From UHGV virus genome UHGV-1351569: a DNA stretch of 64,000 nucleotides, one strand, 5' to 3'. The notes beneath the pieces were generated by a model. That model ran no database searches, was not told where the DNA came from, and was given only the letters and a program-made list of their open reading frames with translations. Positions 1,252-32,020 of the stretch are shown here, piece after piece. The translations under genes and the position numbers were made by a program. Every line of letters starts with the position of its first letter. Positions within the stretch are counted from its first letter, which is position 1. Source of the stretch: a virus.

Positions 1252-2953
<1,702 letters not shown>

Positions 2954-2966
2954 TTAAAAATCCTTT

Positions 2967-2982
2967 GGGGCCTTGCGGCCCC
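2967..2982 (-). terminator. GC hairpin GGGGCC-ttgc-GGCCCC between wac stop and gene 13 start
   Basis: perfect 6-bp GC stem with tetraloop in the 32-bp intergenic gap; weak U tract, so may be an RNA-stabilising hairpin rather than a full terminator. Confidence 0.45.
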
Positions 2983-2985
2983 ATG

Positions 2986-4443
2986 TTATGCTGGTGATAA
3001 AAAGGTAGAAAGTAGTACCCATTCGCCGTCTTTACGAACGTAAGCTTGGCCATCTTTTGGAGCTTCAGGGATATAACCTGCTTCCTGTAAAGTCTGAACA
3101 TCCCCCTGTAATGAAGATACATTACTTTTAATACTACGCATTTCTTGATTAATAGAAGAAATGTTAGTTTCATTAGCTTTTATTGAATTAGTTAATCCGC
3201 GCTCTTCTACTGTTGAACCATTTGGATTTGTGCCGCTTACTAGTTTATTTAGTGCAACAACTTGGCCTTTAATTCCAGTAGTGTTATTACCAATTTCAAC
3301 TTGTAAGTTTTGAACATCATTGTTCAGTCTATTAACTGAAGTTTCAACAGTTGAAACCCTATTTAAAAGAGACCCAGGAGGAGAAGGCTGACCTCCACTA
3401 GAATCAGTTCCAACGATTTGGTTTAGCCATGAAACGTTTGCTCGTAGTCCAGATGAAGTGTTTTCACCAACAATTCCATTTAAAAACTCAATTGATGTTG
3501 TATTATCTTTAATTTGACCTTTAATACTAGAAGGAATATCATCTGAGCCAATTGACGTTTCAATGACAGTCAATCGTTGTTTAATACCTCCGCTTTTATT
3601 TAGTTCATCATTTAAAGCTGAAATTTCTTGTGTATTAGTGTTAACATCTGTGATTATTGAAGTATTTCCTGGATATCCAATAGAAGTTTTGATAGATTTA
3701 ATTTCGGAACTAAGATTAATCTGCGATTGATCTAAATTATGAACACGTGAATATATGCTTTCACTGAATGAAGATGGTCTTTGTCCAAGTTCTTGTCTAA
3801 GATTTCCGACTTCAATTGTCAGTGAACCTACATCAGATTCAATAAATTTTTCTTCCAAATCACTTAGACGTATTCCTTGGGAAGTTATAGCATCTGTATT
3901 ATTAATGATGCGGTGCTTCATACCCGTGCTGCTATTTCCTACAACAGGAAGACCATTAATGTCTTGCCCAGCATATTGTCCTAATTCCCTTTTAATCCAT
4001 AACAAATCATTTCTAATCGTTCTATAAACTGAATTTGCTTGCGAATTAAATGGACCAATATCAGAAAGAATATTATCAACCGTAGTATTTGTACCATTTA
4101 ATATATCAGTATGTTCATTCGTGAGTGTCTTTAAATTTGATATATCATTTTTATTAACACTGATCTGTGATAGCGCTTCTATATCTCCTGATACATCTAA
4201 AATGCCTTGAATGGTTTTAATATCTTCCTGAGATGTTTCAATGGCAGTTTTAAGAATTCCTACATTTTCGTCGAGAACCTCGACATTTTTAAACACAGAA
4301 ACAGTTGGTCTATTCATTGACCCATCGTTTCCATACTTAGTACTAGCTCCTAATATTTCTTCACCATTTTTAATCCATGAAATACGTTCCTGACCTTCGC
4401 CAGGAACGCTATCAACAAAAGGTAACTCTTTTAATTCAATCAT
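2986..4443 (-). CDS. wac: fibritin (whisker antigen control protein)
   Basis: 485-aa ORF ending ...[30 protein letters not shown] (fibritin foldon); repetitive coiled-coil body; between 12 and 13. Confidence 0.9.
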
Positions 4444-4452
4444 TTGTAATCC

Positions 4453-6003
4453 TTAGTAATGAATTTTAATAATATAGTTTAATGATATATTCCATGGTCT
4501 AGTTTCATAACCAATTAATCCTTCACGATTAAGTGTACCAAGGGCATCTCTCGGTCCACCCAATTCAAATCCATCATTAGTGAAGTATGAAGCATTATCC
4601 CAGTCGGCATATTTTCTAGTTCCAAGATATCCTTGATAAACGGACGCACCAAATGGAGCTTCATGTCTTTGGTATTCTCCCCAACCACCAGCATGTTTAT
4701 GGTATGACATTTGTTGTGCCTGAACGCCACCAACATGCATTCCGTCGCATCCTACACCAAGTCTATCCTTCCCATAACCATCTTGTCCACGTTGATTTAA
4801 AATATGACCGCCCGTGCCAGCTCCTCTAACAAAAAGACCTCTCATATCAGGAATGCCAGGGTTATTCCAATCACCACCAAATCTTGTTCCAACTGTGTTT
4901 CTATAATCAGGATATTGATCTCCTGACACTGTTCCACCATGGCACATAATCCAACCCGGAGGTGCTGAATCTCCTGCAAACATCATAATAGTTCCAACTG
5001 GAACCCTTTCTGACGCATATCTTTCAGTGGCAACAGGTTGATCGCCATTTTTCCACATTCCGCCGCGCGACCAAATTCCGTTTGCTGTAAGATGGTCTAA
5101 ATTTAAAGAACCATTAATAGTTTGTCCACCGCGAGTATTAATTACATCTGCGTTCCATGCTAATGCACCAGAGCTATCACCTTCAGGGGCAATACCGGCT
5201 TGCGTCGTTAATTTTACCACCCCACGCATAGAACCAGTAGCTCCTCGACCATTTAGTGTTTCACCTGTTACTGCAACATCTCCCAAATTACTGTTAATTT
5301 CCGATTGTGTCCCTAAACGTATAACACCCTTATATTCTTGTGTTGCAACAGAATTCATAAAGGTATACGGAGAAATTGCATATCCTTCGCGGAGAGTTCC
5401 TTGACGAGTTTGCGCAACAGTAGATAATTGAACTACACCTCTCACAGATTCTGATGCAGTATCTTCGGAAGGAGCTATTTGTGAAATTAATTTTATTGCA
5501 AGTTTTTGGGTTTTTAATGGAGTCATTGCCGTAGTATCATCTACTCCAGCTAAAGCTGCAGGTGTAGATGATATTTTAATAACCCCGTTTGATGACTCAG
5601 ACGAATATCTATTTTGGAACACATCGTCAGTGTGGTATTTCAGTTTTTGCGGCGTTATTGATGAATTATTATCTGAGCCTTCTAATGTTTCTTCATTTGT
5701 TGAATAACGCGTTAAACCATATTTAGTTTCAGTAGCATTTGGATATAATAATCTTGTTGCTAATGTAGCTGGCGTAACGATTTTAGAATTATTAGTTCCA
5801 TCTAAAACCTCTTGCTCTGACGCAATCATTGCTATTCCTTTAACTTCCATAGTTGCATCAGGAATACCATTTACGCCGATATTACTTATTTTTGATAATG
5901 CAGACTGCACTGTCGTGACAGTGTCAGGAAAATTCGATCCTGCAGGATCGAATTTAACATATTTTGATTCATTTGATACGTGCTGATATGTATTGTTACT
6001 CAT
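4453..6003 (-). CDS. 12: short tail fiber protein gp12
   Basis: 516-aa ORF, position between 11 and wac, size close to T4 gp12. Confidence 0.85.
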
Positions 6004-22095: not shown

Positions 22096-22353
22096 ATGAA
22101 AACTTTCAAAGAGTTTGCTACAAAAACTACTATTACTGAATCTTCTCATGGTATGGAAGTAAAGCTTGGAATGGCTTTAGCTGAAGCTGAGCGTCTTTTC
22201 TCTCGTATTAAAGAACTTGCTGCTGCAGTCGATCCTTCATCTTTTAAAGGAGACCAAACGAAAGTTAAAGCACTTTTAGCATTATGCTCCGATGCAGGAG
22301 AAATTGCTAAAAACGGTTCTAAGATGAAGAAACGATTAGAAGATTTAAAATAA
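22096..22353 (+). CDS. small protein with capsid-targeting-like N-terminus (internal-protein-like)
   Basis: 85 aa, starts MKTFKEFATK..., strong RBS AGGAAA; occupies the position of ipI. Confidence 0.55.
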   Translation: MKTFKEFATKTTITESSHGMEVKLGMALAEAERLFSRIKELAAAVDPSSFKGDQTKVKALLALCSDAGEIAKNGSKMKKRLEDLK

Positions 22354-22429: not shown

Positions 22430-22738
22430 ATGAAAACTTACCAAGAATTTATCAATGAAGCAGCTGCGCCAAAGACATTTGTTATTAATACTCAAGCGAG
22501 TCTTGATGACGAGTACGCAGAGGCAATTTTGAAGTCACTTGCTAAGAACGGTGTTGAAGTGTCTGCATCGGACTTTAAGAAAGGGGCTTCCGAGATGTTT
22601 ATTTCTATAACTAAAGGATCTAAAGCTAAAATTAAATCATCATTCGGAGTTGCTCGTGCCGATCAAATCGACAACCATGACTTTAAACAAACTGGTGCTA
22701 AACGACAGAACACAATTGCATCACGTGGAATAAAATAG
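22430..22738 (+). CDS. internal-protein-like protein with capsid targeting sequence
   Basis: begins MKTYQEFINEA (consensus capsid-targeting sequence of T4 internal proteins, prohead protease site after ...xE). Confidence 0.6.
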   Translation: MKTYQEFINEAAAPKTFVINTQASLDDEYAEAILKSLAKNGVEVSASDFKKGASEMFISITKGSKAKIKSSFGVARADQIDNHDFKQTGAKRQNTIASRGIK

Positions 22739-24276: not shown

Positions 24277-24349
24277 TGGGAATTAGCCAAGTTGGTAAGG
24301 CACTGGATTTTGATTCCAGGATGCAAAGGTTCGAGTCCTTTATTCCCAG
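24277..24349 (+). tRNA. tRNA-Gln (anticodon UUG), CCA not encoded
   Basis: cloverleaf read by hand: acceptor TGGGAAT/ATTCCCA, anticodon stem CTGGA/TCCAG, loop TTTTGAT. Confidence 0.8.
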
Positions 24350-24350
24350 C

Positions 24351-24437
24351 GCGAGAATGGTCAAATTGGTAAAGGCACAGCACTTAAAATGCTGCGGAAT
24401 GATTTCCTTGTGGGTTCGAGTCCCACTTCTCGCACCA
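24351..24437 (+). tRNA. tRNA-Leu (anticodon UAA), type II long variable arm
   Basis: acceptor GCGAGAA/TTCTCGC, anticodon loop CTTAAAA, encoded CCA. Confidence 0.8.
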
Positions 24438-24442
24438 AATTT

Positions 24443-24516
<74 letters not shown>

Positions 24517-24526
24517 ATTTAATTTA

Positions 24527-24603
24527 CTCCGTGTAGCTCAGTTTGGTAGAGCACCTCACTTGTAATGAGGATGTCGGCGGTTCGATTCCGTCAATCAGCA
24601 CCA
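24527..24603 (+). tRNA. tRNA-like gene with Thr anticodon UGU but non-complementary acceptor stem (probable hybrid / pseudo-tRNA)
   Basis: D, anticodon and T arms fold normally; 5' acceptor strand CTCCGTG cannot pair with 3' strand AATCAGC (4 of 7 mismatches). Confidence 0.55.
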
Positions 24604-24604
24604 A

Positions 24605-24676
24605 GGCCCTGTAGCTGGAAGGTTCAAGCAAGCGACTCATAATCGCCAGATGGTGGTTCAATTCCACCCAGGGCCA
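24605..24676 (+). tRNA. tRNA-Ile (anticodon CAU, lysidine type), CCA not encoded
   Basis: acceptor GGCCCTG/CAGGGCC, T arm GGTGG-TTCAATT-CCACC, anticodon loop CTCATAA. Confidence 0.7.
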
Positions 24677-24717
24677 TATTTTGGGAACATAAATACTCTT
24701 AGAAATAGGAGATATTT

Positions 24718-25383
24718 ATGTTCTATTACACTTATAAAATAACAAATAAAATTAATAATAAAATTTATATTGGTGTGCATTCTACCGAAAATTTAGATGA
24801 TGGATATATGGGTTCTGGTAAATTATTAAAAAGAGCCCAAGATAAATATGGTATAGAAAATTTTTCTAAAGAAATATTAGAGTATTTTGATGATAAAGAA
24901 TCTATGCTTGAAGCCGAGAAAAATATTGTTACAGAAGAGTTTTTAAATAGACCAGATGTGTATAATTTAAAACTTGGCGGTGAAGGTGGATGGGACCATA
25001 TAAATATTCCTGGGATGCTAAACCAGAAGAAAGACGCTAGTTTAAAAGGAGCTAAATCGTTTAAGTCACGTTTTAAAAATGATATTTTACTTCAAGAAAA
25101 ATATCGTAAACATGGTTCAAATGTATTTAAACAGCTTTGGGATAATCCTAAGTATAGAGAGAAATTTTTAAATACTAAATCTTTCTTGGGTAAGACCCAT
25201 ACTCTTGAAACTATTAATAAAATGAAAGAATCTCACGCCAGAAATAAACACCAACAGGGCGAAAAGAATTCCCAATTTGGTATGATGTGGATTCATTCAT
25301 TAGATGAAAAAGTTTCTAAACGTATTAAGAAAACTGACCCAATTCCAGAAGGATGGTTTAAAGGTCGAAAAATGAAATTTTAA
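24718..25383 (+). CDS. segB: GIY-YIG homing endonuclease SegB
   Basis: 221 aa; N-terminal YKITNKINNKIYIGVHS...GYMGSG GIY-YIG motif; located inside the tRNA cluster as T4 segB. Confidence 0.85.
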   Translation: MFYYTYKITNKINNKIYIGVHSTENLDDGYMGSGKLLKRAQDKYGIENFSKEILEYFDDKESMLEAEKNIVTEEFLNRPDVYNLKLGGEGGWDHINIPGMLNQKKDASLKGAKSFKSRFKNDILLQEKYRKHGSNVFKQLWDNPKYREKFLNTKSFLGKTHTLETINKMKESHARNKHQQGEKNSQFGMMWIHSLDEKVSKRIKKTDPIPEGWFKGRKMKF

Positions 25384-25386
25384 TTA

Positions 25387-25463
<77 letters not shown>

Positions 25464-29312: not shown

Positions 29313-29797
29313 TTTTAAAAACTCGCTGGTATGATTTAGATGACGGGGATGATGGCATTTCAGTTGATAGAGTTGACTGGAATGGCTGTTCCGAAGATAT
29401 GAAAAATTTGCTGATTAGGGAGTTTAGAATGGGATATCAACCAGTTAAGCCATCTACTGCAACAGATGATAAATTCGTGTGTATTCATAATGGTCGCGCT
29501 AAATTAACGAACGCTGATTGGTTCACAGATAAGATTATGATTCTGTGGTATATTATTAGTTTTCCTGTGACATCATTTGTATTTTGCTTCTTTGGAGAAA
29601 GTCCAGTAGACAAAACGGGAGATTGGATTATTTTAACCATACTTGTTAATATTTTTACAGCAGCAATACTATCAGGAATATGGTACGTGTTCATTGAAAT
29701 GCCATGGCGGTTACGTAGGCAGCAAAAGATTTTTGATGAAAAGAAATATACTCAAAATTTAAATAACTTTATCACCGAATGCAGGAAATTAAAATGA
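29309..29797 (+). CDS. small membrane protein, paralogue family member 3
   Basis: two predicted TM helices; C-terminus ...NFITECRKLK. Confidence 0.55.
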   Translation: MILKTRWYDLDDGDDGISVDRVDWNGCSEDMKNLLIREFRMGYQPVKPSTATDDKFVCIHNGRAKLTNADWFTDKIMILWYIISFPVTSFVFCFFGESPVDKTGDWIILTILVNIFTAAILSGIWYVFIEMPWRLRRQQKIFDEKKYTQNLNNFITECRKLK

Positions 29798-30234
29798 AAA
29801 CATTATCAGCTGGTATTATCTTTATGACAGAAGATAAAGATTTATTCATGGGACGGGTTACTGGTTCTCGTAAGCCTGGAATGATGACACATCGCTGGGA
29901 TATTCCAAAAGGCCGTGTAGAAAATTCTGATTTGAGCGCACTAGATGCAGCACGAAGAGAATGCTTAGAAGAGACCGGTTTTAGCAATTATAATCCAGAC
30001 CTTCTAGAAGACCTAGGTGTATTTAAATATTCTAGTAATAAAGACTTACAGTTATTTTATTATACGATTCCAGTAGAGCATGAGATGTTTAGAAATTGCC
30101 ATTGCGAGTCTTATTTTGAAAATAAAGATGGCGTTATGATTCCAGAGATGGATGCTTTTGCTCTTATTCCTCGTACCCAGTGGCAATATGTGATGGGTCC
30201 TTCACTTTACCGAATAATGAACAACCTCTTTTAA
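29779..30234 (+). CDS. nudE: Nudix hydrolase
   Basis: Nudix box GRVENSDLSALDAARRECLEETGF; immediately upstream of e; alternative RBS-supported start at 29794. Confidence 0.75.
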   Translation: MQEIKMKTLSAGIIFMTEDKDLFMGRVTGSRKPGMMTHRWDIPKGRVENSDLSALDAARRECLEETGFSNYNPDLLEDLGVFKYSSNKDLQLFYYTIPVEHEMFRNCHCESYFENKDGVMIPEMDAFALIPRTQWQYVMGPSLYRIMNNLF

Positions 30235-30765
<531 letters not shown>

Positions 30766-30769
30766 AGCT

Positions 30770-30800
30770 GTTTACTTTCTCTTGGAATTGTGATAGTATA
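30770..30800 (+). promoter_or_regulatory. early promoter
   Basis: GTTTAC ... TGATAGTAT. Confidence 0.5.
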
Positions 30801-30853
30801 TTCACAGTTACTTGAATAGATAAATTACTAATTAAAATATTTAAAGGAAACCC

Positions 30854-31327
30854 ATGAAAACATATCAAGAATTTATTACTGAAGCAGCTATTAATTCTCA
30901 AATTATTGCTGAATCTTTTACTGATCTTTTGAAATTTAAAAAAGGTCAAAAAATCACTGCTGTATTGGATGATGGTACAGAAGTTGAGATGGATGTACAG
31001 GGATATAATTATGCAGTAGATGGAAAACTGTATAATAAATCTCATGCTAAATTTGATTCATTTGACGACTTTGTTAATACAGTTGAAGATGAAAAAACTC
31101 GTCGATCCATTGCAACTGGTGATGCTAAGGTTCTTATGGCACATGGTCATGAACGCATTCGCGCTAAACAGAATAAAATGGGTGAAGATAATTTTGCATT
31201 AGTTGGTTATCAATCTGGTAAACAAACTTATGGCTATCAACGTACTGCTACAGTGTATAATAAAAATGGTAAAATCGCTTTCGTGAATAGCAAAGGCTCT
31301 ATTCAGTACGTCAAATCATTCAAATAA
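30854..31327 (+). CDS. internal-protein-like protein with capsid targeting sequence (ipIII position)
   Basis: 157 aa, begins MKTYQEFITEAA; adjacent to e where T4 has ipIII. Confidence 0.6.
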   Translation: MKTYQEFITEAAINSQIIAESFTDLLKFKKGQKITAVLDDGTEVEMDVQGYNYAVDGKLYNKSHAKFDSFDDFVNTVEDEKTRRSIATGDAKVLMAHGHERIRAKQNKMGEDNFALVGYQSGKQTYGYQRTATVYNKNGKIAFVNSKGSIQYVKSFK

Positions 31328-31480
31328 GCAAATAAGAAATATGGGAACAAGCTGGACCTCATGATTCTATGAGGGATTCCCGCCAACCTGTAATAAGGTC
31401 GAGCCTAAGTGCGGTAATGGGTAAATACAGAAATGGACAATTCATGCGCCATGGAATGGCCCAAATTTAGAGAGAATAAA

Positions 31481-32020
31481 ATGAGAACATTTTTAACTGG
31501 TCCTTATCTATCCCTGATGAATGCTTTTACACACCATTCTGATGCTAGAGTAGAAGAAATTTGTAAAAACGATTATATCCCACCATTTGAAGACTTACTA
31601 AAACAATATTGCACACTTCGACTAGATGGTGGACGTCAATCTGGTAAATCAACTGCTGTGACTAACTTTGCTGCTAATTGGCTGTATGATGGTGGAACAG
31701 TTATTGTTCTTTCTAATACTTCAGCTTACGCTAAAATTTCTGCGGGCCACATTAAAAAAGAATTTTCTCGTTATTCTGGCGATGATATTCGATTCCGCTT
31801 ATTTACCGATTCTGTCCGTAGTTTTATCGGTAATAAAGGAAGCAAGTTCAGAGGTTTATCGCTTTCGCGTATTTTGTATATAATTGATGAGCCCGTTAAA
31901 TCTCCTGATATGGATAAAATTTACAATATTCATATTGAAACTGTGCACCACTGTTGCAATAGTAAATGCTGCATTGGTGGTATTACTCGTCCACAGTTTT
32001 TCATAATCGGAATGCAATGA
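31481..32020 (+). CDS. predicted P-loop NTPase
   Basis: Walker A GGRQSGKST and Walker B-like ILYIIDE; start at RBS-supported ATG (ORF extends to 31433). Confidence 0.55.
   Translation: MRTFLTGPYLSLMNAFTHHSDARVEEICKNDYIPPFEDLLKQYCTLRLDGGRQSGKSTAVTNFAANWLYDGGTVIVLSNTSAYAKISAGHIKKEFSRYSGDDIRFRLFTDSVRSFIGNKGSKFRGLSLSRILYIIDEPVKSPDMDKIYNIHIETVHHCCNSKCCIGGITRPQFFIIGMQ

Follow-up and report, generated by a model that had tools for sequence, protein, structure and literature searches.

Identification of the gene between e and vs.8 as ip4

Based on its sequence, the gene at 30854..31327 (+) of the window (the whole 64,000-nucleotide stretch of viral DNA analyzed here) is near certain to be ip4 (ipIV), the gene of a separate and long-named internal protein family. 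Its product, Ip4, is identical in 156 of 157 residues to the protein annotated as "IpIV internal head protein" in phage PP01, and comparison with the latter shows that the window allele carries V134 where the common allele has M. The proteins called Ip4 or IpIV in phages K3, RB32, PP01, and T2 are the same protein: they match at 98–99% identity over all 157 residues, are encoded at the same site 3′ of e, and carry the same signal. Identities of 98–99% were also obtained with genes in RB18, RB27, RB33, RB68, and ime09, besides T2; the homologue in ime09 (98.1% identical) is annotated "Ip4," as is the homologue in RB32. No 100% identical Ip4 was found in the phage collection, in which the best record reached 99.4%. 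The Ip nomenclature reportedly goes back to Repoila et al. 1994.

Searches of family and structure libraries returned matches along the entire protein. Pfam family DUF7412 (PF24183) matched with a score of 316.6 bits (cut-off, 27), with residues 1–157 aligned to profile positions 1–158, and phrog_3155 ("internal virion protein") matched residues 1–157 of 157 with E = 4e-101. In BFVD, a library of viral structure models, the top match was Ip4 of Enterobacteria phage K3 (Q38388; 98% identical).

The first-pass annotation of this locus had described an ORF beside e that opens with the canonical targeting sequence at the position of T4 ipIII, and that encodes a product of 157 aa, shorter than IPIII, with a mature part unrelated to IPII and IPIII. 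The targeting sequence, MKTYQEFITE, is indeed seen, and T4 IPIII is 193 aa long. When T4 IPIII was compared with Ip4 by BLASTP, residues 1–13 alone aligned (10/13 identical), and the remaining segments had E > 5. The mature part of T4 IPII, compared with Ip4 minus its first 10 residues, gave E = 0.47, that is, no homology. Because IPIII aligns over residues 1–13 alone and signal-less IPII gives this E value, the description was accurate, and the alignments revealed no high full-length identity to IPIII. The term "divergent," which had been applied to this gene at the IPIII position, needs correction, since the gene is no unusual or new variant but a member of the different Ip4 family, near-identical in T2, K3, RB32, and PP01.

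We also considered the possibility that the gene is a diverged or shortened version of IPIII or IPII, and this was rejected, since the similarity ends with the signal. In tblastn searches of the 64-kb window with T4 IPI, IPII, and IPIII, only matches to the N-terminal signal were obtained, and no ipII or ipIII was found anywhere. The original observation is confirmed, its interpretation is supported in part, and it concerns a gene that is already known and widely distributed; the annotation for the window is settled as ip4, not a degenerate ipIII.

Gene context and the cassette site

In the ORF listing, ip4 has an ATG start and 157 codons followed by a stop codon, and its product begins MKTYQEFITEAAINS. 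A ribosome-binding site, AAGGAA (30844..30849, +), could be read from the sequence 4 nt 5′ of the ATG. The gene lies immediately 3′ of the lysozyme gene e (30271..30765, +; assigned by ORF translation and annotated e in PP01 and T4) and 5′ of vs.8 (31481..32020, +; assigned by a phrog_1488 match and by the PP01 and JB75 annotations), which are its conserved left and right neighbors. This position is one of two ip loci, the genes being located beside e or beside 57B. The gene order in the window is nudE (29779..30234, +; upstream of e), e, ip4, and then vs.8, vs.7, and a GrcA-like vs.6; the region follows the T4 gene order, read from the opposite strand.

A motif scan placed two copies of TATAAATA, which we take to be the T4 late-promoter consensus, 5′ of e (30237–30244 and 30250–30257, +), and no terminator-like site was found on the + strand between e and ip4. 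The two motifs are possible late promoters, from which transcripts could read through into ip4. The 5′ end of ip4 is also overlapped by an unsupported ORF of 105 aa on the opposite strand (30728–31045, −), which is most simply explained by chance in A+T-rich DNA.

Comparison with T4 delimits an exchangeable cassette without DNA homology to that phage (30886..31342, +), at the ends of which T4 homology breaks off and resumes. The homology spans e, the intergenic region, and ip4 to approximately codon 11, where it ends; it restarts at GGGAACAA (31343), approximately 16 nt past the ip4 stop codon. Between e and vs.8, T4 carries ipIII, ipII, and denV, PP01 carries ip10 and ipIV, and EO1 carries denV and ip4, while Bas37 has denV only, and T2, JB75, and the window have ip4 only. 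In line with the latter arrangement, a tblastn search of all 64 kb with T4 DenV (endonuclease V, involved in pyrimidine-dimer repair) gave no match at E up to 1, and the expected denV site, the interval from e to vs.8 (30766–31480), holds ip4 alone.

Every ip gene is preceded by a block of approximately 40 nt (TTAAAGGAAAC.CATGAAAAC.TATCAAGAATTTATT), which comprises the ribosome-binding site and the signal-coding sequence. The block was found before ipIII of T4, before both ip10 and ipIV of PP01, and before ip4 of EO1, where it follows denV. Homologous recombination between copies of this block could plausibly mediate the exchange of cassettes.

Targeting sequence, predicted processing, and fold

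The capsid targeting sequence of Ip4, assigned by its likeness to that of T4 IPIII, covers residues 1–10 (MKTYQEFITE; 30854..30883, +) and ends at the first protease site, I8-T9-E10. It is followed by a variable linker (residues 11–20; 30884..30913, +) that ends at a second candidate protease site, I18-A19-E20, and, assuming a cut at E20, by the mature Ip4 domain (residues 21–157; 30914..31324, +). The 64-kb window contains two instances of the DNA pattern of the targeting sequence (30854 and 22430), compared with 0.01 expected by chance. Previous studies on T4 IPIII have shown that targeting depends on residues 4 and 7 and processing on residues 8 and 10, and that the prohead protease gp21 cuts after L/I-X-E (PMC9026906). 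The corresponding residues of the T-even targeting sequence, Y4, F7, I8, and E10, are all present in Ip4. Among 14 Ip4 homologues (61–99% identity), M1, K2, F7, and E10 are invariant, as is E20, whereas residues 11–17 are variable and position 18 is occupied exclusively by I, L, or M. Both E10 and E20 are preceded by I/L/M-x in all 14 homologues.

Cleavage by gp21 is predicted after E10 and would probably also occur after E20, because both sites are invariant, the N terminus is modeled with low confidence (see later), the propeptides of T4 internal proteins are 10–19 residues long (PMC9026906), and IPI has the motif ITE at residues 17–19. For comparison, GenBank entry X04567 annotates the IPIII precursor as −10 to 183. 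Cut at E20, Ip4 would consist of 137 residues with a computed mass of 15.5 kDa and pI of 9.3; if cut only at E10, these values would be 147 residues, 16.5 kDa, and 9.1. Mature Ip4, with its 17 Lys, is small and basic, as are the T-even internal proteins.

An AlphaFold2 model of Ip4 based on 15 sequences had a pLDDT of 83.7 and a pTM of 0.77, with all five models in agreement. Confidence was low for residues 1–20 (pLDDT < 50 at residues 10–18) and mostly > 90 from approximately residue 31 onward. The model thus describes a confidently predicted fold with a putatively disordered N terminus. Sequence and profile searches of the PDB with Ip4 gave no significant match, and no informative fold match was obtained for the mature domain.

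Of the named T4 proteins, IPIII, which inhibits the GmrS1/GmrSD2 enzyme of ECOR17, shares with Ip4 the locus beside e, the predicted cut after Glu10, and its basic character. The two targeting sequences differ by one substitution in 10 residues (A9T). Ip4 is, however, 36 residues shorter, has the extra candidate site at E20, and shows no detectable similarity to IPIII past residue 13. T4 IPI (a 95-aa precursor, the processed form of which, IPI*, inhibits GmrSD of Escherichia coli CT596) is small, signal-bearing, processed, and injected, as predicted for Ip4. Its propeptide of approximately 19 residues, ending in ITE (17–19), resembles the 20-residue N-terminal segment that we propose for Ip4. 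IPI differs from Ip4 in its locus, which is beside 57B, in its signal variant (MKTFKEF), and in its unrelated mature sequence.

Distribution, selection, and distant homologues

Using tblastn, ip4 was found in 471 phage records, versus 261 for the mature part of T4 IPIII; in this collection, Ip4 is therefore commoner than IPIII. T4 is among the phages without ip4, and Klebsiella phage KP182 carries both IPIII and Ip4. Sequences with 95–99.4% identity to the window protein come mostly from Escherichia and Shigella phages, and those with 60–80% identity mostly from Klebsiella phages. The full length of 157 aa is retained in 469/471 records. Comparison of the window allele with five further Tequatrovirus alleles gave 5–15 synonymous versus 0–2 nonsynonymous differences, corresponding to dN/dS values of 0.02–0.10, which are as low as those of the lysozyme gene e. 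Hence, ip4 is a genuine coding gene under strong purifying selection.

In Serratia phage SP1 and Klebsiella phage Roth21, the gene likewise adjoins e, and the Roth21 proteins are 69% (Ip4), 65% (lysozyme), and 83% (vs.6) identical to those of the window. Where it is present, Ip4 evolves as an ordinary conserved gene, and the variability of the site consists in the presence or absence of cassettes, not in rapid sequence change.

Beyond these close relatives, an exhaustive profile-free search yielded just four clusters, with 34–41% identity to Ip4. These distant homologues open with a different N-terminal signal, MNFEQFLNE followed by S, or similar. In one 381-kb viral contig (IMG/VR contig IMGVR_UViG_3300011242_000001; positions 2822–4468), three adjacent genes of 243, 83, and 157 aa start with MNFEQFLNE or MSFTNFLNE, and the last of these encodes an Ip4 homologue with 34% identity. 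These N termini appear to represent a capsid-targeting signal specific to this lineage, with L-N-E as the cleavage motif, and the three-gene set suggests an internal-protein array of a very large, distantly related phage. Since the distant homologues carry another signal, the Ip4 domain appears to be older than the Tequatrovirus signal to which it is attached here, which supports a modular design of exchangeable signal and payload.

Four residues that are invariant among the close homologues, H64, H99, E111, and D112, are all replaced in the homologues with 34–41% identity. The hypothesis that Ip4 is an enzyme was dropped on these grounds, the His, Asp, and Glu residues conserved among close homologues being replaced in distant ones. 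The finding that no catalytic-type residue survives in the distant homologues favors a binding protein over an enzyme.

Proposed role of Ip4

We propose, with a confidence slightly above even for the complete chain of packaging, cleavage, injection, and anti-restriction, that Ip4 acts as an injected inhibitor of a modification-dependent host nuclease. The first three steps are modeled on T4 IPI, IPII, and IPIII, and the anti-restriction target is a guess by class. According to this proposal, the Ip4 precursor would be made during head building, and residues 1–10 (MKTYQEFITE) would dock it to the prohead scaffolding core. The signal would be removed by gp21, which would cut after Glu10 (I-T-E) and probably also after Glu20 (I-A-E). 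The freed, basic, and folded protein of 15.5 to 16.5 kDa would remain packaged with the DNA inside the head, probably at a high copy number; T4 internal proteins are estimated at approximately 300 copies each per head. Ip4 would then enter the next host together with the phage DNA, and there it would most likely bind and block a type IV restriction enzyme of a further subtype, a host nuclease directed at glucosyl-hydroxymethylcytosine DNA.

Previous work supports the general idea, contained in the first-pass annotation, that proteins of the internal-protein class are candidates for anti-defense functions: each of the T4 proteins Ip1, Ip2, and Ip3 inhibits a single GmrSD type IV enzyme, without cross-protection (PMC12373910). 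IPIII lacking its targeting sequence is active from the host cytoplasm (PMC9391042), and Bas37_0260, a signal-bearing protein, blocks McrBC (bioRxiv 10.1101/2025.11.20.689424). Ip4 and Bas37_0260 are alike in that a payload stands behind the same kind of N-terminal signal; the payloads are nonhomologous, and the anti-restriction function is proven for Bas37_0260. The latter further differs from Ip4 in its length (77 aa) and in being encoded at the ipI locus, in a phage without ip4. Direct fitness data for Ip4 were sought in the HIDEN-SEQ screen, but Bas37 has denV alone at the site. A search of the accessible literature for Ip4, IpIV, and DUF7412 returned no more than a passing mention of ipIV in T2, and nothing on virion presence, cleavage, or host target.

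When ip4–10 were assayed against active GmrSD variants, no reproducible inhibition was observed (PMC12373910, Supplementary Fig. 9). Moreover, the strong conservation of Ip4 is an unusual signature for an arms-race inhibitor and counts against the anti-restriction reading, although internal proteins seem to vary by cassette swapping. In a wider formulation, which we regard as plausible if somewhat short of probable, Ip4 would be an injected inhibitor of a host defense with which it has not yet been paired, the payload being old and the host target widespread and conserved. An old payload and a widespread target are indicated because the GmrSD panel was negative, because the gene occupies the same site in T4-like phages of Escherichia, Klebsiella, and Serratia, and because a distant homologue carries another packaging signal. 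Ip4 occupies the site beside e more often than IPIII does; with Ip1, Ip2, and Ip3 recently paired with restriction enzymes, Ip4 is an obvious next candidate for such pairing, as is already recognized in the field.

One alternative is that Ip4 is mainly a structural or DNA-associated component of the head, which aids core assembly or neutralizes DNA charge and has no specific host target. Mature Ip4 is rich in lysine and basic (pI 9.1–9.3; 17 Lys), T4 internal proteins bind DNA at low salt, and loss of IPIII halves the rate of head assembly and lowers burst size (PMC9026906); lysines of internal proteins have also been described to contact DNA phosphates (PMC3012670). Such a housekeeping role would agree with the strong purifying selection and with synteny being maintained across genera, as well as with the failure of the GmrSD panel to give a target. 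Nevertheless, we consider this alternative unlikely. The gene is dispensable for the lineage, being absent from T4 and Bas37 and replaced by other cassettes at the site elsewhere, all four of the four signal-bearing proteins of known function are restriction inhibitors, and the specific fold that is confidently predicted for Ip4 would exceed what charge neutralization needs. A similarly low probability applies to the idea that Ip4 is injected to inhibit a defense other than type IV restriction, for example, an early system that senses DNA or injection. Delivery together with the DNA would suit any "first-response" defense (PMC9391042), the negative GmrSD panel is compatible with such a target, and conservation of Ip4 in phages of Escherichia, Klebsiella, Salmonella, and Serratia points to a widely distributed target that, in contrast to the hypervariable GmrSD family, is itself conserved. 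On the other hand, no T-even internal protein is known to act on such a target, and our searches revealed no sequence or structural similarity of Ip4 to any known anti-defense protein.

The signal-coding block is common to all cassettes, and one could therefore imagine that the ORF is a decaying remnant in which the signal is kept because its DNA serves as a recombination site. This reading, to which we assign practically no probability, is refuted by the selection and conservation data: the length of 157 aa is kept in all but two of the records, dN/dS is low (0.02–0.10), and orthologues at 61–70% identity retain the whole domain. The confident fold prediction likewise speaks against it. An injected inhibitor of a modification-dependent nuclease remains our preferred, if cautious, interpretation.

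A conserved RNA-like element downstream of ip4

A noncoding element of approximately 120 nt (31343–31462, +) lies between the ip4 stop codon and the start of vs.8 and forms the right-hand anchor of the cassette. Judged from sequence comparisons, it looks like an undescribed phage structured RNA. Its G+C content is 44%, compared with 35% for the window, and it is nearly invariant in T4-like phages. The element is considered noncoding in the window because vs.8 likely starts at ATG 31481 (see later) and because the frame annotated in T4 meets a stop codon.

The core of the element is a 43-nt sequence, CGCCAACCUGUAAUAAGGUCGAGCCUAAGUGCGGUAAUGGGUA (31381–31423), which was also found, at 86–95% identity, in unrelated phages, namely in Vequintavirus, Vibrio phage F101 (138 kb), and E. 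coli phage Ivi (45 kb). There, it is intergenic, with credibly annotated genes on either side. Bacterial genomes contained exact matches to the core at a frequency ascribed to chance (12 versus approximately 35 expected), and the remainder of the motif was missing from them. A covariance model of the element detected a single copy in the window.

Covariation was analyzed using 28 distinct core variants from phage records and IMG/VR contigs, picked by exact core match. In a three-helix junction model of the core, the helices of which are short (2–4 bp), 87% of cells were paired, compared with 22–50% for slid controls. The pairs formed by columns 3–42, 4–41, and 24–31 vary by compensatory double changes (CG, GC, AU, or UA) without pairing being lost in any variant, and the covariation score of the core was reached in 0/500 shuffles. 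Upstream of the core, a closing helix with an inner hairpin keeps its pairing across differing sequences (GGGAA/UUCCC, GGGAG/CUCCC, GGGG/CCCC, GUACC/GGUAC, and AAAGCU/AGCUUU). The single-sequence folding energy of the element, including the upstream helix, was not significant. A search of Rfam 15 with the element gave no match, and none of the papers searched contained the core sequence.

Other features of the window

The longest ORF for vs.8 opens at ATG 31433 (31433–32020, +), whereas the PHROG profile and the homologues start only at M17, which corresponds to ATG 31481 (MRTFLTG). The profile, phrog_1488, covers residues 19–195 of the ORF that starts at 31433, and PP01 and JB75 annotate vs.8 proteins of 179 aa from the equivalent of ATG 31481. 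Based on these comparisons, the true start of vs.8 is likely ATG 31481, not 31433. The 219-aa vs.8 protein annotated in T4 begins within the conserved element; the corresponding frame is closed in the window. The vs.8 protein resembles a terminase ATPase domain (weak phrog_2 and Terminase_6N matches), and, according to a 2026 preprint, its co-expression with the immune sensor EcAvs2 is toxic.

A second internal-protein locus is located between 57B and the tRNA cluster (22096–22353 and 22430–22738, +). It contains an ORF of 85 aa that starts with MKTFKEFATKTTITE, an IPI-type signal, and an ORF of 102 aa that starts with MKTYQEFINEAA, and its DNA is 92.7% identical to the ip7/ip5 region of T2. 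With this ip7/ip5-type pair and Ip4, the phage therefore holds a T2-like set of internal proteins. The tRNA cluster itself (24277–25463, +) comprises five genes according to ARAGORN, for Gln, Leu, Gly, Met, and Arg; T4 has eight tRNA genes.
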